Shown here piece by piece: positions 5,997 through 15,389 of a DNA stretch of 64,000 bases. Source of the DNA: a virus (taxonomy: Duplodnaviria; Caudoviricetes). The number at the start of each line of letters is the position of its first letter. Position 1 is the stretch's first letter. The stretch is taken from the IMG/VR virus record IMGVR_UViG_3300035491_000042, positions 1-64,000 of that record; one strand, 5' to 3'. The notes under the pieces are model-generated. The model saw only the letters and a list, made by a program, of their open reading frames with translations, was not told where the DNA came from and made no database searches. A program made the translations under genes and the position numbers.

Positions 5997-6245
5997 CTAA
6001 CGGTGACGCTGGTAATTCTTTTTCTTCTCCCGCGCTTCCTTCAACGCGTGATAGAACTGCTTCGGCGTGATCGCAGCCAGTGCCTCTTTGCGTTGACTGG
6101 TGTAACACCAAAGGTTCTCTGTTAGCTTCTTACAGTCATTCATCTTGTCGGCGAAAGTATCACCGTAGTGTCGACCGTGGGTATCGTTCCAGACCTTAAC
6201 CATCTTCTCCAGAACGAACGTAGTGTCATGTTGTGTGAATTTCAT
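5997..6245 (-). CDS. hypothetical protein
   Basis: ORF track; operon packing. Confidence 0.6.
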   Translation of the reverse strand: MKFTQHDTTFVLEKMVKVWNDTHGRHYGDTFADKMNDCKKLTENLWCYTSQRKEALAAITPKQFYHALKEAREKKKNYQRHR

Positions 6246-6248
6246 ACA

Positions 6249-6524
6249 TTACCACCCCGCAAACACATCATAGGCTTCTTTTTTCTTGCGTGGCGCATGC
6301 ACCTTACGGAACAGCGAGAACGCCTCTTTAACAACCATACCCATGTTTCGGTTTCCAGCGTAAAAATCAACCGTCTTGGTGTGGACGTCGAAACGAACAC
6401 GCATGATAGCTACACCCTTGTTGTTCTGAACATACACAGGAAAGCCGGTTTCTTTGGCTTCGTTGATAGCGCGAATGATCTTACGCATCATAGTAGGGTG
6501 GGACAGAGAAGTCGAAGTGATCAT
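6249..6524 (-). CDS. hypothetical protein
   Basis: Start refined to MITSTS with RBS AGAGG. Confidence 0.6.
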   Translation of the reverse strand: MITSTSLSHPTMMRKIIRAINEAKETGFPVYVQNNKGVAIMRVRFDVHTKTVDFYAGNRNMGMVVKEAFSLFRKVHAPRKKKEAYDVFAGW

Positions 6525-6552
6525 GTTATAGCCTCTTTGTTTGCTAGTTGAA

Positions 6553-6594
6553 GGATCATCATAGTACACTCGTTGGAATGTACTATGATGATCC
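6553..6594. repeat. perfect 16-bp inverted repeat
   Basis: GGATCATCATAGTACA-10nt-TGTACTATGATGATCC, intergenic. Confidence 0.9.
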
Positions 6595-6630
6595 AAGGGC
6601 GGAGGGCAGTACCCTTGGATCAAACGGTTA

Positions 6631-6987
6631 TCAGGAAATTTTACAGAGAACCGCACGGCGGCCTTTTTCACCAGCGTTGCGCGGTTGTAGACCGGCACGT
6701 GTGATACCGCCGTGGGCAGTCGCTACATAACGAATTGCATTGTTGGCAGTCTGGATGTCAGTTTTGAGCATCCCAGCAACTTCGACTGCTGTCACCGTCT
6801 TCCCAGAAAGAGAACCAGTCATCCCAATCAGCTTGTTGCGAATCGCAACAGTTTCCGGTGTTGGCTGCTTGCCCATGTTCTTCGTCTGTTCTTTGAGAGC
6901 ACTGCGGAGCAGGTTTTCAATCTTGGTTACACTCACCTTGTTTTCTTTGGCGAATGTTTTGGCGATTTCTTTGATGTCAGTTTTCAT
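6631..6987 (-). CDS. putative winged-helix DNA-binding protein
   Basis: Start MKTDIK with GAGGTG RBS; TAVEVAGMLKTDIQTANNAIRY HTH-like segment; basic. Confidence 0.5.
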   Translation of the reverse strand: MKTDIKEIAKTFAKENKVSVTKIENLLRSALKEQTKNMGKQPTPETVAIRNKLIGMTGSLSGKTVTAVEVAGMLKTDIQTANNAIRYVATAHGGITRAGLQPRNAGEKGRRAVLCKIS

Positions 6988-7048
6988 ATCGTTCACCTCG
7001 TGATTTACTTTGATGCCGCGGTTGGTTACTTGGTTTACAGTTTGAATC

Positions 7049-7216
7049 TTACAGGTAGACGAAGACCTTGTCAATATGCAGAGACCGTTCTGGTGTTGGG
7101 AAGTCTTCGTCCCATACTTCACCAGCTAGACAGCCCCAGTCGAAGTAGTATGTGATCTCACCGGTACGGATCAGCGAGAACTTACAGATCGGAGCATACG
7201 AAAAATCGGTTTCCAT
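7049..7216 (-). CDS. small hypothetical protein (55 aa)
   Basis: Own translation METDFSYAPICKF...; GGGG RBS; fills the gap between neighbours. Confidence 0.5.
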   Translation of the reverse strand: METDFSYAPICKFSLIRTGEITYYFDWGCLAGEVWDEDFPTPERSLHIDKVFVYL

Positions 7217-7217
7217 G

Positions 7218-7433
7218 TTACCCCCTTACCGAATGCTTCATCATCCCCATGATGATATCGTCGACCGTGTTGATGACGTTCACCATGTCCATGATACACG
7301 CTCTTGCGACCTTGTCACCGCGTCGTTTGTGGGCTTCCATCAGCAGATCGTCGCGGTCTGCGTGGGTTGCCTCATCATCCTCGTCGACGACAAGAACACC
7401 TTGCTTCCACCCGGTAGCCATCTTACAGCTCAC
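7218..7433 (-). CDS. hypothetical protein
   Basis: ORF track; operon packing. Confidence 0.5.
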   Translation of the reverse strand: MSCKMATGWKQGVLVVDEDDEATHADRDDLLMEAHKRRGDKVARACIMDMVNVINTVDDIIMGMMKHSVRG

Positions 7434-7791
7434 CAGAGTCGATTTCTGCCAGTTCCAGCATGAAGATTCGGAAAGAACCGCCAGCAGGAGCAGGTCGACC
7501 GGGGATCAGCTTCGGGCCATTGTACTGGAAAACGATCATGTTGTCACCATTTTTCATGTCGATTTGTGCGTGATCAACCGGAATCTCGGTGTTGCACATG
7601 CGGTTAGCCAGCTCAACAGTTACCGGGTTGCCCATCGAGTACACCATCGATTCGGCGTTCTCGCGGATATACTGACCAGCCTGTTCAGGGGTCAACGGGT
7701 CGACCATGATATCGAATGCGGCTTCGGCGAACTTGGCTTCTACCATGTTCATGGAAAATGCATTGCTTACGAAAGTGCGCTTGGTAGTCAT
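7423..7791 (-). CDS. DUF1874/STIV B116/AcrIII-1-like protein (variant active site)
   Basis: NAFSMNM, SMGN (canonical SxGH), DHAQI..GD (canonical NRxxI..GD), Q..KL..G; 122 aa, typical size. Confidence 0.7.
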   Translation of the reverse strand: MTTKRTFVSNAFSMNMVEAKFAEAAFDIMVDPLTPEQAGQYIRENAESMVYSMGNPVTVELANRMCNTEIPVDHAQIDMKNGDNMIVFQYNGPKLIPGRPAPAGGSFRIFMLELAEIDSGEL

Positions 7792-7817
7792 AATAATACC
7801 TCTTTGGTTGGTTTTAC

Positions 7818-7853
7818 ATGTGGCACCATACTAGATGCCACATAGAAACTCAA
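7818..7853 (-). promoter_or_regulatory. hairpin-embedded sigma70-like promoter
   Basis: TTGAGT-17-TATGGT; -10 lies mostly in the loop of the ATGTGGCA/TGCCACAT inverted repeat. Confidence 0.6.
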
Positions 7854-8101
7854 CTAATACCTAATGCAGCCCGCTCAACGTCGGTAAGCTTGGCAATTGC
7901 TTGTTCTCTGATCTTACCTTGATGATACGAGATTGCATCATCTGCTGTGTCGTGAATGATGAACCGAACCGGTTTTACAAGGTCATGAGGACCAGCTAGC
8001 TTGCTTGCTTCAACCTCATCGGCGATATAGCAGTGGTGTCTATGAAACTCACCGCCGTCCCAACGAAGAACCTCGAATGCTTTGATGATTGTTGTTGTCA
8101 T
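7850..8101 (-). CDS. hypothetical protein
   Basis: ORF with GAGGTG RBS. Confidence 0.65.
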   Translation of the reverse strand: MTTTIIKAFEVLRWDGGEFHRHHCYIADEVEASKLAGPHDLVKPVRFIIHDTADDAISYHQGKIREQAIAKLTDVERAALGIS

Positions 8102-8110
8102 CTCGTCACC

Positions 8111-8452
8111 TCACTCTTCGCTGAAGTCTTTCAGTTGAGAATCGATCTCATCAATCAGATCGTTCATACTGGAGTCGCTGATAAGATCGTAATCGTTGCC
8201 CCAGATCAGAACATAGCAGCCTGCCTTGCGGAGGGTGTTTTTCTGATCAGACTCCGGGCGATTCCAGAGCTTCAGGACGTTGCATTCGGTTTGGCAGAGC
8301 TCAGACTTGATCAGCTCAACGTCACGAGTAGGCTCTTTGATAACCATCTCTTCGCCGTCACTGACGGTAAGGTGGATGTCGGAAGGGTGGGCGAAGATAA
8401 CCTTCAGCAGGTCGTCGACGACTTTTTGCTCGATTTCGCTTGCGTATTTCAT
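8111..8452 (-). CDS. hypothetical acidic protein
   Basis: Start refined to MKYASE after repeat promoter and RBS AAAGGGG. Confidence 0.65.
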   Translation of the reverse strand: MKYASEIEQKVVDDLLKVIFAHPSDIHLTVSDGEEMVIKEPTRDVELIKSELCQTECNVLKLWNRPESDQKNTLRKAGCYVLIWGNDYDLISDSSMNDLIDEIDSQLKDFSEE

Positions 8453-8485
8453 GATGATACCCCTTTCTTTGGTTTGGGCAGTTGG

Positions 8486-8531
8486 CTTTAGCTTGGGATC
8501 ATTTAACCATAATCCCAAGGTGAAGTCAACT
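8486..8531 (-). repeat. 46-bp promoter-hairpin repeat, copy 1
   Basis: AGTTGACTTCACCTTGGGATTATGGTTAAATGATCCCAAGCTAAAG (minus strand), identical in 4 copies. Confidence 0.95.
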
Positions 8532-8767
8532 CACTTCTCGACGTTCTTCGGGCGACGGGTCGCCCAAGTGGCGTTCTTGTGGTTGGTAGGTGCGACTTCG
8601 TACACATCACCGCAACCGACTCGGATAGTGCCATCCATGTACACGGCGGTAATGGGGGCGATTTCCTGCGGAGTGCCGACGAACTTGCCGTTACCGTCAC
8701 TGCCGTGGTTGATGACGACGTGTTCACCGACTTGCGGGAGGCGTTGTGCTGCTGATTGCTTGGTCAT
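8531..8767 (-). CDS. hypothetical protein
   Basis: Start MTKQSA with AAGGA RBS. Confidence 0.6.
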   Translation of the reverse strand: MTKQSAAQRLPQVGEHVVINHGSDGNGKFVGTPQEIAPITAVYMDGTIRVGCGDVYEVAPTNHKNATWATRRPKNVEK

Positions 8768-8795
8768 GATGGTGTTTCCTTTTTGCTTTGAGGTT

Positions 8796-8830
8796 GGGGA
8801 CATTTAACCATGTCCCCGGTCTGGTGTCAA
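8796..8830 (-). promoter_or_regulatory. variant promoter-hairpin element
   Basis: TTGACA-17-TTAAAT; same GGTTAA loop, different stem GGGGACAT/ATGTCCCC. Confidence 0.85.
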
Positions 8831-9186
8831 GCACTAATGCGCTTGTGTTTCTTTTCCCACTTACCAATGGCAATGTTGAAGTAGAACGCGGTGTTGAAGT
8901 AGTCAGTCATCGGGTCACTGTTATCATACCAGTCGCCTTCACGCTTGATGATCTCGACAACTTTTTCCAGAAACTCAATTCGCGCTGGGTGTCCTTCGTA
9001 GTTCTCACGAATGTAGTAGTGATTCACACCTTCATGAACATCGTCGTCGAAGAGGCTTGACTGCATCACAGCAACGTTCAGCGTCATATGGTGGCTGATG
9101 ATCACCGAGAACTTTACTGCCTTACCAAACTCTTCTTTCAGAGCCAGACGGATTTTTTTGGCGGTTGCGGCGTTAATGTAGGCCAT
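8827..9186 (-). CDS. LPD29-like (polyvalent-protein-associated) domain protein
   Basis: KFSV and DNSDPMTDYFNTAFY..IxIGxW motifs. Confidence 0.55.
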   Translation of the reverse strand: MAYINAATAKKIRLALKEEFGKAVKFSVIISHHMTLNVAVMQSSLFDDDVHEGVNHYYIRENYEGHPARIEFLEKVVEIIKREGDWYDNSDPMTDYFNTAFYFNIAIGKWEKKHKRISA

Positions 9187-9221
9187 TTTGATTCCCCTTT
9201 TCTTTGGTTTTGGGTAGTGAA

Positions 9222-9267
9222 CTTTAGCTTGGGATCATTTAACCATAATCCCAAGGTGAAGTCAACT
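9222..9267 (-). repeat. 46-bp promoter-hairpin repeat, copy 2
   Basis: Identical to copy 1. Confidence 0.95.
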
Positions 9268-9474
9268 GTGTTTTTCAAGTAGGCGCAAATGCTCGGCACA
9301 ATTCTGGAACTCTTCCATAGCCCAACGCATACCAGCCGGTGAATTCTCAAAACGCTCTACTTGCGCCCCATACTCAACAACAATCTGGTTTTTGGTGTGG
9401 TCGATATACGCAATCAGGAAGAAAGCGCCGTCGATTGAGTACAGTTCAGTACGTTCATTAGCCATGATACTCAC
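9262..9474 (-). CDS. hypothetical protein
   Basis: ORF; stop codon is the TGA of the repeat's TTGACT. Confidence 0.55.
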   Translation of the reverse strand: MSIMANERTELYSIDGAFFLIAYIDHTKNQIVVEYGAQVERFENSPAGMRWAMEEFQNCAEHLRLLEKHS

Positions 9475-9475
9475 C

Positions 9476-9859
9476 TCAAATAGTATACAGTTTCAGATCA
9501 TCGCCCAAGTACACTTCGACTTGTGGGTACTTTGTTCCATACCCAACCAGATCGGTTAGCTGATCACCTAAAGCACCTGCGCCTCGATCCCAGAAACCAG
9601 CACCGTGTCCGTTTCGAGTCAACCAGAAATCATGACCAGCGCAAACCCAGATAGGTGCATCGTCTTCAATAACCCGTGCCCGGTTGTACTCATCCAACAA
9701 CGGGAAGGTCTCATTGTAAAAATCAGTAGCTTGGGCTGTCAATGCCGCCTTTGCTTCGTCTGCTAGTAGGTCGACATCAGGAAAACCGTCAGTGTCATGA
9801 GCAGTCCAAACAGCAGCAACCATATAGCCTTCGATGAATTGAGATAGACGTTTGTCCAT
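9476..9859 (-). CDS. conserved phage early protein
   Basis: GHDFWLTRNGHGAGFWDRG motif seen in phage early-region proteins. Confidence 0.7.
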   Translation of the reverse strand: MDKRLSQFIEGYMVAAVWTAHDTDGFPDVDLLADEAKAALTAQATDFYNETFPLLDEYNRARVIEDDAPIWVCAGHDFWLTRNGHGAGFWDRGAGALGDQLTDLVGYGTKYPQVEVYLGDDLKLYTI

Positions 9860-9862
9860 GAT

Positions 9863-10534
9863 TCAGCCCCTTGCGATGATGTCGACTTTCTTTTTCGAGA
9901 CGCCGTGCGCCCGGAATCCGATCACAAAGTCACGGTTAGCGTGTTGGCAGAGCTGGCAGGTGCTACAGGTCACCTTGTCGCTCTTCTCGGCAGGGCAAGC
10001 CACTACCTTGACGTCATTGACCGTCTGAACGTTTGGGGCGTCAATCGGCAGGATACAGACCACTGGCAGCTTACTGGTTTGCTTCAGCAAAGTAGCAGCT
10101 TGGACCGTGTTCGCCGATACGTTGACCGTAAACCCGTTTTTGTTCGCTTTTTCAATAGATTTAAGATTCTCGACCGAAAGCGCATGATGGGTATAGGTGA
10201 ACCCCATTTTGCCTTTGTTGGCACGTGTCAAGGCGGTCAGGAATCCGTCGTCGATGGTTCCGTTTTTGTGCGGCAGGTCACCAGCAACATTGTGACGCCA
10301 AAACTGGTTACGTGGAAGAGACGCGACAGCATGGATAAACTGATCGGCCTCCAGCGCAGTAGACACCTTGCCATCTGTCAGACGACTCCAATGGATACGG
10401 GAGTGACCTAGTTCAGCGTAACACCCGTTCCCTTTGAGCGGGCAGGTTTCCGGGCAAGTATTCATACCTGACATTGTGGTAGGGATAGGACCAGTTTTTG
10501 TATTGCGGGAAATTCGAGTCAGTGAGAAGAACAT
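9863..10534 (-). CDS. Cys-rich Fe-S/radical-SAM-like phage protein
   Basis: NxKTGP, CPxxCP..CYA, RHNVAGD, YTH, CPA..CxxCxLC, FxAHG; start refined to MFFSL. Confidence 0.65.
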   Translation of the reverse strand: MFFSLTRISRNTKTGPIPTTMSGMNTCPETCPLKGNGCYAELGHSRIHWSRLTDGKVSTALEADQFIHAVASLPRNQFWRHNVAGDLPHKNGTIDDGFLTALTRANKGKMGFTYTHHALSVENLKSIEKANKNGFTVNVSANTVQAATLLKQTSKLPVVCILPIDAPNVQTVNDVKVVACPAEKSDKVTCSTCQLCQHANRDFVIGFRAHGVSKKKVDIIARG

Positions 10535-10567
10535 AATAGTACCCCTTTTCTTTGATTGGGTAGTGAA

Positions 10568-10613
10568 CTTTAGCTTGGGATCATTTAACCATAATCCCAA
10601 GGTGAAGTCAACT
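10568..10613 (-). repeat. 46-bp promoter-hairpin repeat, copy 3
   Basis: Identical to copy 1. Confidence 0.95.
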
Positions 10614-10614
10614 A

Positions 10615-10842
10615 TCAGAATGACGCTACCAGTCTCGCAATGTCTTCGGCAGTCATTTTCTCGACTTCAAAGAAGTTGAGATCGGAGCCTACCCCGTCGA
10701 CGTTAGCATGAGCGGATTCAGTGTTTTTGTCGATGCAGACGAACGCCTCAAAGTCCCCAGCGTCACGAACTTGCAGAGACCGAACGCCAGCGCAATATTC
10801 CTCGGTCACAGCGTAGAAAACCCCGTCAATCTGTACTTTCAT
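10615..10842 (-). CDS. hypothetical acidic protein
   Basis: Single-gene cassette between repeat copies 4 and 3. Confidence 0.65.
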   Translation of the reverse strand: MKVQIDGVFYAVTEEYCAGVRSLQVRDAGDFEAFVCIDKNTESAHANVDGVGSDLNFFEVEKMTAEDIARLVASF

Positions 10843-10874
10843 GGTAATACCCCTTTCTTTGGTTGGGCAGTGAA

Positions 10875-10920
10875 CTTTAGCTTGGGATCATTTAACCATA
10901 ATCCCAAGGTGAAGTCAACT
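10875..10920 (-). repeat. 46-bp promoter-hairpin repeat, copy 4
   Basis: Identical to copy 1. Confidence 0.95.
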
Positions 10921-11287
10921 AGACGTTCATGTAGTTGCGAATCTTGACACGGTACTCCCGTGGCTTGCCCGGTACTGGCGTAACGGTTGCATACGTCTGG
11001 GTATGCCCACAACAATCGTGCTCGCAGCAGCAACCGTAGTCCAGTGAGTCTTCAATGGCACGGGCTACCCAGTGACGGATGCCCTTACCGTGACGTGCTT
11101 CGATTGCCCGTTTTTGGGCACCAGACAACGTGACAATAGTATGCTGGGTGTACCCAGTCCCATCATTGTCATACTCGACCACTTTTGGCTTGAGCATCTT
11201 ACCGACTGCGACGAACACATGATCATTCAGATGATCATAGCCAATACGATACCCATGTGTGACGCGTTTGTAAATATTGATTTTCAT
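10919..11287 (-). CDS. hypothetical protein with Cys cluster
   Basis: CCCEHDCCGH; AAGGG RBS. Confidence 0.65.
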   Translation of the reverse strand: MKINIYKRVTHGYRIGYDHLNDHVFVAVGKMLKPKVVEYDNDGTGYTQHTIVTLSGAQKRAIEARHGKGIRHWVARAIEDSLDYGCCCEHDCCGHTQTYATVTPVPGKPREYRVKIRNYMNV

Positions 11288-11303
11288 TTTCGTGCCCTTT
11301 TAA

Positions 11304-11441
11304 TCAAAAGACATTGACCACGTTGGTATGGCGATTCATGTTAATCCAAATCACGATACCCACAACTTGGTTGCCATCCTTAATATAGGTGACACTATCA
11401 CGACCGAAGAAGTCGTGACAATATTCGAGGTTGTCAAACAT
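11304..11441 (-). CDS. small hypothetical protein (45 aa)
   Basis: MFDNLEY... with GGAG RBS; longer track ORF is likely over-extended. Confidence 0.55.
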   Translation of the reverse strand: MFDNLEYCHDFFGRDSVTYIKDGNQVVGIVIWINMNRHTNVVNVF

Positions 11442-11456
11442 TTGACGTTCTCCGTT

Positions 11457-11812
11457 CTGGTTTATTTTGTCGGACGGACTCAACAAAGTCAAGTCCGTCC
11501 TGCAAAATAAACTAGACGTTTTAGCTTTCATAAGCACAACCGCGCAGGTCATTTTTAAGGACGCGACGACGCCCGACGTTATTATTTCAGTGCCTGTCAC
11601 CGGCACGATTCGAGTAGGCGCAGTAGTACATATTTCCGCTAGTATGTTCCCCGTCGGGAGCGATACCTTTACCGAGGCAATCTTTATGACGTTCAAAACT
11701 TTGACATGAATCGTCTAGACATACCTTTCCCAAGGCGTGGCACACATACAAGCCACATTTTACCTTATCCACATTTTTAAAGAGCGTACCGAGCGGCGAC
11801 TTGTCCGTCGGT
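11457..11812 (-). ncRNA. candidate structured 5' leader/ncRNA with boxA
   Basis: boxA-like CGCTCTTTAAAAAT at 11773-11786; several hairpins incl. long stem 11459-11511; no RBS-supported ORF. Confidence 0.45.
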
Positions 11813-11818
11813 GGAGCC

Positions 11819-12257
11819 ATTATAGCAGCTCCGAAAAACCTTGTCAAGCGTCAAAACACCTGACTTGTACCGCATTGCCGATCTAGCTGGCGTGGTGTCA
11901 TTCTATCGAACCGTTGTTGCAATGTCAAGCCCATAATTATCTTGACCGGTTGGGGCTGGCGTGTACCGTTATCCGCCTGACCCGATCCCCTAGATCAGAG
12001 CCGCAACCGTTTGCATGGTTCGCATTATGACGACTGTCACGATGCTTGTCAAGCAACCGTTGAACCGAGCCGCTTAACCGGTTGATCGCTTCAACGGTTC
12101 CAATTGTGCCGGGTGTGAATCCAATTGTCAAGCATGCACCGAAAAAAACTTTCACCGGACGAATGCATGAACCGGGTGCGCACGTAGAAAACGCGCAACA
12201 CGCGTAGAAAACCGCGCGTGTATGCGTATTATATCACACGGAGAATGCGGGTGTCAA
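11819..12257 (-). promoter_or_regulatory. five tandem sigma70 promoters
   Basis: TTGACA-17-TATAAT (11819-47), -17-TAGAAT (11900-28), -17-CATAAT (12024-52), -17-CACAAT (12103-31), -18-TATAAT (12228-57). Confidence 0.85.
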
Positions 12258-12289
12258 TAGGGTCTGGAAAAGTTTTTCAGGGGGGTCGA

Positions 12290-12420
12290 TTGGTCAAAAA
12301 ACGACCAAATTGGTCAAAAAATAGACAAAAACAGAGGTTTTTCCGGTGTTTTTTGGACAAAGTTTGGACATGTCCAAGGACAAAAGTTTGACACTTTTTG
12401 TACACGATTTTTGGACAAAA
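12290..12420. repeat. short TTGG(A/T)CAAAA-type repeats with A/T tracts
   Basis: About 8 degenerate copies; palindrome TTGGACATGTCCAA at 12364-12377. Confidence 0.7.
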
Positions 12421-12424
12421 GCGC

Positions 12425-13180
12425 TCACATGGAGCGCTTTGCAATCGGGCGAGAGAAGTAGGTCATACCATTCTTACCCGGTTTGAAGGTAGCCGTCAGG
12501 CTGATCTGGAGGTCGGTGCATTCCGAAACATCCAGAGCAGCAGGAACGGTTCCCCACAGCTTGTGACCCTCTTCGGTCTTCACCAACATCTTCAGATCAT
12601 ACGTGCTGTAGCGGAAGCCGTCAACCAGCTTGGTGGAAACCACCTTACCGATGATGGTCTTGCGACCTTCGAGGTATACTTCTGGTTCCTCTTTGGAAGG
12701 TTTAACCACGCCGTACTCGATATCCGCAATGATACCGCTGATAACAGACTTCATACCTTTCAGGTACGCGTATGCGATCTTGTTGTCTTCATCGCCCCAC
12801 GCCGCGCCCATGGATACCTCAACGTCATCCAGCTCCAGCTCGATCAGAGCCTGAATGTCAGTAACACGTGCTTTCACGCGAGTAGAGAAGTTACCACCGA
12901 ACTCTTTGGCAGGGAAGTATGGGTCGAGGTCTTCCTTCATGACCGGGAGAAACTCACCAGCAGCAAAGATAACATCACTGTAGTCGCGAGCGTAGTTGTC
13001 ATACATACCGACCGGCATGATGTAACCATCACACGGTGCGTGGTAGCGACCATTACTGTCAACAGAGGGATCGATACCGCTGTTGCTTTCCTTGAAAGCC
13101 GCTTCGATGCGAGCTGCACGGGCGTTACGGAAGGCGTTCAGTGCTTCTACAGCAGCGAGGGTTTTGGTGAATTCGGTCAT
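12425..13180 (-). CDS. hypothetical protein, possible C-terminal OB fold
   Basis: Start MTEFTK with GGAG RBS; beta-rich C-terminus ending FSRP. Confidence 0.65.
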   Translation of the reverse strand: MTEFTKTLAAVEALNAFRNARAARIEAAFKESNSGIDPSVDSNGRYHAPCDGYIMPVGMYDNYARDYSDVIFAAGEFLPVMKEDLDPYFPAKEFGGNFSTRVKARVTDIQALIELELDDVEVSMGAAWGDEDNKIAYAYLKGMKSVISGIIADIEYGVVKPSKEEPEVYLEGRKTIIGKVVSTKLVDGFRYSTYDLKMLVKTEEGHKLWGTVPAALDVSECTDLQISLTATFKPGKNGMTYFSRPIAKRSM

Positions 13181-13212
13181 GGCTAATACTCCAATCAGTG
13201 AATGTGGAGCCA

Positions 13213-13240
13213 ATTATACAGACCGCGTTTAGGATGTCAA
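13213..13240 (-). promoter_or_regulatory. sigma70 promoter
   Basis: TTGACA-16-TATAAT. Confidence 0.8.
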
Positions 13241-13262
13241 GCCCCCTTTCGAGGGCATCGAC

Positions 13263-13646
13263 TTATTTCAGGCCATACTGCTTGCGACGGCGAAGAGCCT
13301 TACGGCGTTTACGAAGGGCTACCCGCTGGGTCTTTGGGTTCTTCTTCTTGGTCTTCACAGACTTTCGAGCTCGCAGCCGTAGCTGTGATTTCGACATACC
13401 TGTTGTCGCCGTAGCACGGCGAGACCGAATCTTTCGATTGAGCGTTTTCCGAATAGTGCCATCAGCGCTCACACGCTTGACGATACTTTCAAGAATAGCT
13501 GCTGCGGTCTCGTCGTCGAGATCATACTCTTCCTTGATGGCCTGCACATCTTCCTCTGTCTCACAACTATCAAGTAGGAAGTCAACGATAGCGTCGACAT
13601 CTTCTTCCAGCTTCGAGTTTTCGGATTCTAGTAGTTCAAGGAACAT
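13263..13646 (-). CDS. prohead core protein (T4 gp68-like)
   Basis: Acidic N-half; KRVSADG...RATATTGMSKS..RARK..K.NP...RKRRKA..RR..GL; TAAATA upstream. Confidence 0.75.
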   Translation of the reverse strand: MFLELLESENSKLEEDVDAIVDFLLDSCETEEDVQAIKEEYDLDDETAAAILESIVKRVSADGTIRKTLNRKIRSRRATATTGMSKSQLRLRARKSVKTKKKNPKTQRVALRKRRKALRRRKQYGLK

Positions 13647-13690
13647 CGGGTTTCTCCATTCTGACAGTATTATTTACTGTCTAGAACAGT

Positions 13691-14341
13691 TTACAGCAGA
13701 TCACTTACCAGAGAGCGTATATCTGGCTTCTCGAAAGTCGACGGTTTCATGATCTTGCCTTTGCTGTTCTTGAAGACACAGTGACCGCTTTCGGTCTTGA
13801 TCATGACGACGCCTTCTGCTTCAGGGCGATTCTGTTCGATCCACTGGCATTCTGACTCGATACCATCGACGTACATCGGGTACTTCGTCCAGTTACTGCG
13901 CATGACTTCGTTGATTACGGCGAGAACATCGACACTTGGGTCAGTGAGAATCTTCTCACACATGCCTTCGAATGATACACGGACAAGTTCATCACTGATG
14001 ACGCACTCTTCTGGGAAGAACATCAAAGCAGCGTCCTCAACCCATTCACCCGGATACGATCCGTCCAGAGTTAAGATACCATCGAACGCGGTCTCATCGC
14101 CGTGAGTATTCAGAAAGTGCAGATACGACAACGTAACGAATACGTCGGCGATACCATCATACGCTTCAACCACGTCCTCGACGATAGCTCCACCGATCAT
14201 CTCGGCGAGTTCGCTACGCACGAAACCGTACTGCGCTGCTTTCTTCTCAGGGGAGAAGTCGTGATTCCCGCCCTCGTATGCAACAGCGTTCCACGCGACC
14301 ACGTCGAATGCTGCTGCTCTCAATTCTTCTACTCGTTCCAT
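13691..14341 (-). CDS. MazG-like all-alpha NTP pyrophosphohydrolase
   Basis: ELAE..EAYDGIAD, EVMRSNWTK, GKIMKP..F..PD. Confidence 0.75.
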   Translation of the reverse strand: MERVEELRAAAFDVVAWNAVAYEGGNHDFSPEKKAAQYGFVRSELAEMIGGAIVEDVVEAYDGIADVFVTLSYLHFLNTHGDETAFDGILTLDGSYPGEWVEDAALMFFPEECVISDELVRVSFEGMCEKILTDPSVDVLAVINEVMRSNWTKYPMYVDGIESECQWIEQNRPEAEGVVMIKTESGHCVFKNSKGKIMKPSTFEKPDIRSLVSDLL

Positions 14342-14442: not shown

Positions 14443-15389
14443 ATGAAAACACAAGAAACTGCGATAAAAGACTTCCAACACACGCATGGTGATGCATATG
14501 ACTATTCGCTCGTGGAATATAAAAACAACAACACCAAAGTAAAAATCATATGCCCAACACATGGTATTTTTGAGCAGATACCACGCGCTCATACTGCTGG
14601 TCATGGCTGTAAACTCTGTGGCGTGATGGCAGTGACAGAGAGTAACAGAACCCAAACATCCAAATTTATAGAAAGAGCATCAAAGAAATACCCAGACACG
14701 TTTACATACGATAAAACCGAGTACAAACATTCAAAAACCCCTCTCATCGTCACGTGCAGAACGCATGGTGATATACAAGTAGAACCAAGGATTTTTTTTT
14801 GAACAAGGTGTCGAAGTACGGATGTAAACAGTGTTATTGGGATAGCAAGAAACTCACACTAGATGACTTCATAAAACGCGCAACGAAAATACACAAGTCG
14901 AAGTATGATTACTCACACATTAAAGAATTAGACACGGTAGAAACGAAAGTAGAAATCATGTGCCCAGACCATGGTATTTTTGTAACAACCGCTGCGATAC
15001 ACCTCGGTGGTTTCAATTGTCCTCACTGCCAACGAGAAGACGCACTAGGTGGCTACAATTCAGTATTTTTCGAAAGAAACCCGGAACAGAAGAATACAGA
15101 CGCTGTTCTTTATCTTGTTGCGTTTGACGATGGGGACAACACGCAGTTCATAAAAATCGGTATAACGAAAAACCTTCGAACCAGATTTGCTGGCTATAGA
15201 AACTATAAGAAAGTAGTTCTGTTTGAGAAAACGATGACGCTGTATGACGCGTTCTTAGAAGAGCAGAAAATTTTGAAAACTATTAAAAGAAAGTTCATAC
15301 CTACCGATGAAAAGTTCTCTGGTAGGTATGAATGCTTTCACAAGGATGAGCAGGACGATCTTCTTTCCTACCTTAGATCACTACCTTGA
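14443..15389 (+). mobile_element. homing endonuclease with repeated Zn-binding (DUF723-like) modules, split by a frameshift at a T9 run
   Basis: Three YDY..CPxHG..GCxxC repeats plus C-terminal GIY-YIG/T5orf172-like LYLV..KIGIT..RF; ORFs 14443-14802 and 14799-15389; opposite strand to neighbours. Confidence 0.7.

Follow-up and report, generated by a model that had tools for sequence, protein, structure and literature searches.

The locus and its six elements

The window analysed here is the first 64 kb (64,000 nt) of a complete virus genome of 152,211 bp with direct terminal repeats (Caudoviricetes; IMG/VR virus record IMGVR_UViG_3300035491_000042). Between positions 7815 and 10920 it carries six repeated elements, termed E1 to E6, which combine sigma-70-type promoter boxes with a hairpin and are set between small genes; the whole array lies on the minus strand, as do the genes of the first ∼40 kb. 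The portal protein is of the T4 type (PF07230, E 7e-66), and judged by this protein the nearest cultured relatives are the Alishewanella phages vB_AspM_Slickus01 and Slicko01 with 57% identity, all other listed records reaching at most 34%. We consider it likely that the units are composite cassettes of the promoter-early stem-loop (PeSL) type in a hyperplastic early-gene region of this T4-portal phage, joining a sigma-70 early promoter, a hairpin that insulates the unit when it forms in read-through RNA, and repeats that act as substrates for recombination. Elements of this class have been in print since 2010, and the array is not a new kind of system. Read along the minus strand, the locus comprises the following features.

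10919-11287, minus strand: gene for a 122-aa protein (phrog_20892, unknown function); it precedes the first element, and its TAG stop abuts the -35 box
10875-10920, minus strand: E4, with the identical 46-nt core, TTGACT-17-TTAAAT, and the hairpin CTTGGGATTAT/GGTTAA/ATGATCCCAAG
10615-10842, minus strand: gene for a 75-aa protein, no family match
10561-10614, minus strand: E3, shown with its two-tier hairpin in full (an outer helix, then a 3x3 internal loop and an inner helix of 11 pairs); the identical core is at 10568-10613
9863-10534, minus strand: gene for a 223-aa DUF7227 protein (PF23872, E 3e-84), 71% identical to its homologue on metagenome contig L008
9476-9859, minus strand: gene for a 127-aa protein (phrog_1915), 91% identical to its L008 homologue
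9262-9465, minus strand: gene for a 67-aa protein, with no element of its own and missing in L008; its TGA stop lies inside the E2 -35 box
9222-9267, minus strand: E2, with the identical core
8827-9186, minus strand: gene for a 119-aa protein (PF18847 LPD29, E 4e-6; phrog_10415); its TGA stop lies inside the E5 -35 box
8796-8832, minus strand: E5, TTGACA-17-TTAAAT, with the stem GGGGACAT/ATGTCCCC and the loop GGTTAA
8531-8767, minus strand: gene for a 78-aa protein, no family match
8486-8531, minus strand: E1, with the identical core and an outer 3′ arm that reads AAGCCAACT, not AAGTTCACT
8111-8452, minus strand: gene for a 113-aa protein (phrog_22565, weak match)
7850-8101, minus strand: gene for an 83-aa protein, with no element of its own and missing in the contigs of runs X4, X5 and X6; its TGA stop lies inside the E6 -35 box
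7815-7855, minus strand: E6, TTGAGT-17-TATGGT, with an 11-pair stem (core ATGTGGCA/TGCCACAT) and an outer helix
7423-7791, minus strand: gene for a 122-aa protein (PF08960 STIV_B116-like, E 8e-7)

The original prediction, made from the letters of the window, had described four identical 46-bp elements, a fifth with the same spacing and GGTTAA loop around a different stem, and a sixth with a third stem around its -10 box, and all of them were recovered. A 44-nt core occurs four times on the minus strand with 0 mismatches (8486-8529, 9222-9265, 10568-10611 and 10875-10918; 0.00 expected from 100 shuffles); the identical block extends to 46 nt and lies inside an 82-nt repeat family, whose 5′ untranslated region (UTR) and ribosome-binding site (RBS) are 77-87% identical up to the ATG. 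The promoter and hairpin of E5 were found at 8802-8830 and have the loop of the main element, and the 11 pairs of E6 enclose its hexamer in a stem unrelated to the others. The stem changes are compensatory, as had been claimed: between the main stem and that of E5, two pairs are altered on both sides and one T.G pair has become C-G. GGG/CCC is found in the stem of five of the six units. The -10 hexamer is TTAAAT in E1 to E5 and TATGGT in E6, the spacer is 17 nt throughout, and TG precedes TTAAAT at the extended -10 position. A pattern search and an nhmmer profile run over the whole genome gave no copies beyond these six; genome-wide, a perfect hairpin of at least 7 pairs follows 12 TTGAC sites within 45 nt, and 5 of these sites are units of the array.

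Within each ∼80-nt unit the order is upstream stop codon, promoter boxes, two-tier hairpin, conserved 5′ UTR and RBS. The upstream gene's stop is supplied by a TGA within the -35 box in three units (genes ending at 9262, 8827 and 7850) and abuts the -35 box in the other three (TAG, TGA-TAG, TGA-G), which agrees with the modular junction noted earlier. The same applies to what comes after each element, a purine-rich RBS and one to three small genes, ten array genes altogether.

A two-tier hairpin

The hairpin is bigger than originally described, since an outer helix has to be added to it. In 65-nt folds of four units the -35 region (AGTTGACTT) pairs with positions ∼+1 to +12 through 5-9 pairs, and the hairpin comes to ∼55 nt in total. 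Inside the outer helix follow a 3x3 internal loop, an inner helix of 8-11 pairs and a 6-nt loop; counted as a whole, the hairpin comprises ∼19-21 pairs, interrupted by an internal loop of 3x3 or 2x3. The inner stems alone have folding energies of −14.1 to −17.2 kcal/mol, and with the outer helix these reach −17.6 to −22.9. Fold z scores were −4.0 to −5.0 for E3, E1 and E6 and −1.8 for E5, and of the six 65-nt units folded in all, five had z of −4.0 to −5.5. In E1 the outer 3′ arm is altered (AAGCCAACT in place of the AAGTTCACT found elsewhere) yet still pairs with the -35 region.

Homologous cassettes with other stems in related phages

Megablast of 7000-12000 against 50,697 phage records returned zero matches, and in blastn against phage records the sole likeness at the DNA level was a ∼200-nt piece of the DUF7227 gene, shared with 125 records. 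An element pattern search of IMG/VR gave 0 stretches, single-protein scans of IMG/VR with the DUF7227 protein and with a 252-aa flank gene gave nothing that was confirmed, and an Rfam search over 6000-14000 gave nothing near the family thresholds. An alignment search with the DUF7227 protein found 265 relatives in IMG/VR. Eighty loci (762 kb) were retained from these; TTGAC-plus-hairpin sites occurred at least twice in seven loci, and an array of the present type in none. The DUF7227 protein is widespread and the cassette is not.

Homologous cassettes came from four sources. The Slickus01 genome has, between 9.5 and 16 kb, small genes set apart by ∼78-nt spacers of the same plan, and we count 12 cassettes there, 11 in the part of Slicko01 that was examined, six on the 99-kb IMG/VR contig L090 and two on L008, an 1819-bp contig with two exact copies of the main element that turned up when metagenome contigs were screened for the element pattern. 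A two-flank pattern matched ten stretches of IMG/VR, among which L090 is the only true array, the nine others being single matches and mostly free of a hairpin; blastn of one Slickus01 cassette against the phage records matched the two Alishewanella phages only. Because the cassettes of all four sources align over AGTTGACTT, the hexamer columns and TAAAGTTYAC, they are homologous.

Within this common frame the stems differ widely. The inner stems fall into ten distinct versions of ∼6 unrelated sequences, and their 96 pairs comprise 89 Watson-Crick and 7 G.T pairs with 0 unpaired, a zero that is partly built in, since the stems were taken from minimum-energy folds, and that leaves stem length and diversity as the evidence. 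Pairs were counted from the base of the stem; column-wise counting in a MAFFT alignment was dropped, since loop lengths differ and columns then mismatch pairs. In the relatives the same hexamer columns hold TATACT, CATACT or TAGAAT, and the 5′ arm tracks the -10 variant, AGTA going with TATACT and ATTC with TAGAAT. The outer helix is maintained by at least five different 3′ arms, and L090 adds two versions that still pair with the -35 region. Selection on the hairpin structure is thus supported, at the level of sequence comparison, by varied stems at one place in homologous cassettes of three further genomes, and the earlier proposal of a structure conserved around the -10 box holds in this form.

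A diversity of this kind bears on the possibility that the inverted repeat is an operator, at which a dimeric phage repressor shuts off early transcription. A palindrome over the -10 box has the classical operator position, and GGG/CCC is common to the main element and E5. A single genome, however, has two or three unrelated stems (there are three in the present phage and two in L090, and Slickus01 has two variants), which one protein could not read, and it is the pairing that is conserved, not the sequence; we regard an operator as the least probable of the explanations considered.

The position of the -10 box within the hairpin is not constant. Between lineages the apex is displaced by 1.5-2 nt, and in Slickus01 and L090 the -10 box lies mostly in the stem, so what is conserved is the pairing and not the presentation of the -10 box in a loop. 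This bears on the proposal, also made originally, that the structure gates the promoter, with a cruciform extruded in supercoiled DNA exposing or hiding the -10 box. In every copy the -10 box is placed within a conserved inverted repeat, in its loop and 3′ arm, the promoter stands within a ∼55-bp imperfect palindrome, and the odd hexamer TTAAAT might require pre-melting. Sequence, however, cannot tell a DNA-level from an RNA-level structure, the apex shift speaks against loop presentation, and the same genome holds overlapping promoter-terminator pairs that clearly act in RNA. At 5323-5273 on the minus strand a terminator stem of 10 pairs, with nine T behind it, is overlapped by the -10 box of a consensus promoter, and like layouts with a G/C-rich stem and a T-run occur at genome positions 88464 (plus strand) and 147456 (minus strand); such pairs would stop only transcripts that arrive from upstream. 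Gating by a cruciform is distinctly improbable and draws no support from the sequence, and a hairpin acting in read-through RNA is the simpler reading. As to hairpin promoters of the N4 type, a search with PF00940 (T7-type RNA polymerase) gave nothing, its control being equally silent; the longest open reading frame (ORF) of the genome, 1411 aa, matches the Slickus01 ribonucleotide reductase, and no ORF has the size of the giant N4 virion polymerase.

In the present phage, Slickus01 and L090 the array stands behind homologues of two conserved genes and a non-coding promoter cluster. Despite these syntenic flanks, no array gene is common to the present phage and Slickus01. Between Slickus01 and Slicko01, three orthologous cassette pairs differ in stem variant, two in both arms and one in a single arm. 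In one of the three, the Slicko01 cassette (L007 4245-4307; record position 10247) is a hybrid that combines one variant's 5′ arm with the other's 3′ arm and retains a G.T pair. Hybrid and switched stems would be expected from gene conversion or from a crossover within the loop.

Gene gain and loss at the element edges

Relatives differ by whole genes with boundaries at the element edge, as read from their sequences, and this is what the original prediction had expected of cassette gain and loss at the repeats. The present phage and L008 share a 47-48-nt core that is 100% identical, next to a DUF7227 gene of 71% nucleotide identity and a gene for the 127-aa protein of 91%. In the present genome, tblastn (E limit 0.01) finds no homologue of the gene that lies upstream of the element in L008; homology sets in with the first base of the element. 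L008 also lacks the 67-aa gene (9262-9465), its element following directly after the 127-aa gene, and a contig of run X3 has the same arrangement (side 69; the contig is ∼90% alike and the evidence weaker). In contigs from runs X4, X5 and X6, which stem from related phages and are ∼97% alike in the flanks, position 7854 is joined to 8113 with nine other letters between (sides 128-255 nt); the 83-aa gene (7850-8101) is therefore missing, with the boundary 1 nt from the E6 -35 box. A 276-bp gene found in Slickus01 only (15047-15322) ends 2 nt ahead of a cassette and is missing in Slicko01; it is one of three array differences between these phages, the others being a 292-nt in-gene deletion and a replacement starting shortly after that cassette.

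Taken together, nine differences have four boundaries within 0-2 nt of a -35 box, one just after a cassette, three elsewhere, and one that is ambiguous on account of the repeat. The four near the edge concern the 67-aa and 83-aa genes, Slickus01 15047-15322 and the gene upstream of the element in L008; the six stop/-35 junctions make up ∼1% of the array, as against four of nine differences with a boundary at most 2 nt from a -35 box. The contigs of runs X3 to X6 were built from 31-letter words and break at the 46-nt repeat. Of the joints linking 9268-9277 with 10547-10868 the majority, and likewise the joints 10615/10920 and 10456/8459, have short sides of 20-51 nt and join repeat copies, and were taken as mapping ambiguity; the X4 to X6 contigs cover 9263-10517 sparsely and have zero cover past 9075, and no inference was drawn from uncovered parts.

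The array had also been called integron-like, and it shares with integron arrays the tandem small genes, the imperfect palindromes between them and the gain and loss of whole genes at the palindrome edge. In contrast to integron arrays, it comes with no integrase, each unit has its own promoter, and the element lies upstream of its gene; the integron trait of promoterless cassettes behind one common promoter does not appear here, as all six units carry promoter-like boxes. By eye, the elements are also unlike the core sites of attC. A search for tyrosine recombinases (PF00589) gave 0 matches in the complete 152-kb genome, the control being positive in 14 of 14 genomes.

Site-specific capture of promoterless genes at the stop/-35 junction would fit the fact that all three clean single-gene indels (the 83-aa gene, the 67-aa gene and Slickus01 15047-15322) have their downstream boundary 0-2 nt from a -35 box and that these three genes all lack an element of their own. 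The same boundaries would nevertheless arise if selection kept genes and promoters intact, the events number three only, and the missing recombinase and the promoter in each cassette, unlike those of integrons, tell against it. We judge integron-like capture very improbable, and this part of the earlier proposal is not supported as a mechanism. It is also quite improbable, in our estimate, that the junction is a preferred, structure-directed point of insertion for genes without a promoter and the two-tier hairpin the site of gene capture that is recombinase-free or uses a recombinase not yet identified, an 'integron without integrase'. If this were true, the 100% identity of the 47-nt core would reflect a role in capture and not promoter function.

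Comparison with known promoter-stem-loop elements

The assignment to the PeSL type rests on the likeness to elements of the T4-like phages RB49 and phi1. The account of Arbiol et al. (2010; PMC2839356) describes PeSLs as strong sigma-70-like promoters combined with stem-loops, which mostly sit between the -35 box and the -10 box or over the latter and frequently have polyG/polyC stems, in a motif that begins with the upstream stop codon and ends with a Shine-Dalgarno (SD) sequence and ATG. The same study reports that the stem-loop of one phi1 unit (between ORFs 210 and 211) cut downstream lacZ about as a strong terminator does, that whole units drove a reporter, and that recombination between units gave encapsidated mini-circles. 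In the RB49 genome, which we read directly, several units of the hyperplastic region consist of TTGACA, ∼7-10 nt, an 8-pair G-rich/C-rich stem with a 6-nt loop containing the -10 box, and the return arm. Aligned in register and without gaps, E5 agrees with the RB49 unit at 119937 in 29 of 39 positions; the 92 remaining TTGAC sites in that 50 kb score 7-24.

The architecture thus fits both the published description (PMC2839356) and the RB49 genome, in line with the comparison drawn at the outset. Shared features are a spacing of 17 nt between sigma-70-like boxes, a stem-loop rich in G/C that lies between them or covers the -10 box, a stop codon on the 5′ side and SD plus ATG on the 3′ side, and the arrangement of units in tandem between small one-strand ORFans, with indels and replacements between close relatives. 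At the level of sequence the array thereby shows the promoter boxes, the stable stem-loop, the intergenic position in a hyperplastic region and the indels at units by which PeSLs are recognized. On the other hand, the outer helix is consistent here and was not seen consistently in 16 RB49 intergenic folds. The AT-rich stretch listed upstream of the -35 box is absent here, because upstream coding sequence or its stop abuts or enters the -35 box. TTAAAT is the hexamer of five of the six units, which are packed into 3 kb, the phage belongs to another lineage (portal ≤34% beyond the Alishewanella phages), and the array is known from sequence alone. Comeau et al. (2014; PMC4122927) extended the class to T4/PST and KVP40/nt-1, where promoter and stem-loop likewise stand in hyperplastic regions beside indels between relatives; there the stem-loop lies just upstream of the promoter, whose consensus is another one, whereas here the hairpin encloses the promoter.

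Proposed mode of action

On the PeSL reading, each unit would be a start site for host RNA polymerase in early infection; judged from the sequence, initiation would occur ∼7 nt past the hexamer and fall inside the 3′ half of the hairpin. Since the 5′ half is then missing, the unit's own mRNA could not fold the hairpin. Transcripts from upstream would carry the full ∼55-nt hairpin and, by analogy with the tested phi1 stem-loop, might be attenuated, terminated or cut, and each cassette would thereby be insulated from its neighbours. The promoter-terminator pair at 5323-5273 of this genome applies such a logic with a canonical terminator. The near-identical repeats would serve homologous recombination or gene conversion and permit gain, loss and swap in whole units, a mechanism that we infer from the pattern among the relatives. 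The anatomy, the conserved pairing, the core identity across genomes and the gene-sized differences at the edges are direct observations.

Several points weigh against this reading, besides the partly built-in pairing count given above. Transcript starts, 3′ ends and promoter activity are all inferred in it. TTAAAT, which both L008 units also have, carries T at -11, where A is usually critical; because of this T the TTAAAT sites are omitted from the list of a sigma-70 scan, and their promoters may be weak. Neither helix is followed by a T-run, and the hairpins are thus not canonical intrinsic terminators; the RB49 counterpart of the tested phi1 unit, which was read in place of the cloned phi1 sequence itself, is also without a T-run. 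The array has just six units in one 3-kb stretch and RB49 many over several regions. Covariation within a genome can arise by gene conversion that copies both arms together. As for gene turnover, not every difference is placed at an element: the extra 51-aa ORF of L008, the 292-nt in-gene deletion of Slicko01 and the divergence seen at 9075 all fall within genes or between them, and selection for intact genes would by itself drive surviving indel boundaries to the stop/-35 junction.

As the array hairpins have no T-run, processing by RNase III is a serious rival, which is inseparable here from attenuation. In the early region of T7, intergenic hairpins of ∼20 pairs with internal loops are RNase III sites and lie downstream of tandem strong promoters. 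The present hairpins appear to resemble these sites in size, in their internal loops and in their place between early genes, and differ from them in that the T7 sites carry no promoter. The hairpins would then be processing or stabiliser sites, at which long early transcripts from the cluster upstream (11.8-13.2 kb) are cut into single-gene mRNAs. This would accord with ∼19-21 pairs, a 3x3 or 2x3 internal loop and the lack of a T-run, with the position, immediately upstream of the array, of five to six consensus promoters and a motif like boxA, and with the possible weakness of TTAAAT, by which read-through could be the main source of mRNA. We consider this explanation unlikely, if worth keeping in view. 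In the passages considered, the sole experimental result for the element class is a lowered downstream expression (PMC2839356).

A device of the PeSL type is now found in a separate T4-portal lineage, comprising the present phage, an IMG/VR contig, a metagenome contig and two Alishewanella phages. Descriptions of PeSLs have come from a few T4-like phages only, and the elements are little studied, and in the preprint on Slickus01 and Slicko01 the words promoter, stem-loop and hairpin are absent. A comparison of several genomes is stronger evidence than one genome for selection on the hairpin and for gene turnover at its edges, and we see the added value in this lineage-wide comparison, in the outer helix, and in the cultured pair Slickus01/Slicko01, which is open to bench testing. 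For annotation, the arrays are useful as markers of the variable early-gene region in these phages.

Array genes and the upstream promoter cluster

Pfam matches were obtained for three of the ten array proteins (STIV_B116-like, LPD29 and DUF7227), and none of the ten has a known function; the suggestion of an anti-host gene content was a guess. The DUF7227 protein (9863-10534) has relatives in IMG/VR of up to 51% identity and also occurs in Pseudomonas phages of the Pakpunavirus type, and it shows a conserved cysteine cluster at its N-terminus.

Upstream, the array adjoins a stretch of ∼1.1 kb (11300-12430, minus strand) without a convincing gene, which contains five to six tandem consensus sigma-70 promoters. 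Their starts are at 12257, 12131, 12052, 11928 and 11847, and a further one is at 13240 (13213-13240). Syntenic non-coding clusters are found at 7772-9129 in Slickus01 and at ∼2610-4300 in L090. About 35 nt downstream of promoter 11847, at 11769-11785 (minus strand), stands GCTCTTTAAAAATGTGG; the Slickus01 cluster (7772-9129) has GCTCTTTAACAATCTGG twice and a similar third copy behind promoters, and L090 has two related copies (2973, 3208). The motif GCTCTTTAAAAATGTGG/GCTCTTTAACAATCTGG resembles the boxA antitermination motif of rRNA operons, and if this likeness is real, transcripts from the promoter cluster could read through the array hairpins.

Between a 262-aa gene and the promoter cluster, short direct repeats with an iteron-like look occupy 12290-12410 (minus strand), with three to four TTGTCCAAAA-like copies and two of TTTTTGACCAAT. 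In the stretch that precedes the 122-aa gene stands an inverted repeat (11456-11516), whose 25-nt arms show 88% complementarity and are separated by 11 nt.

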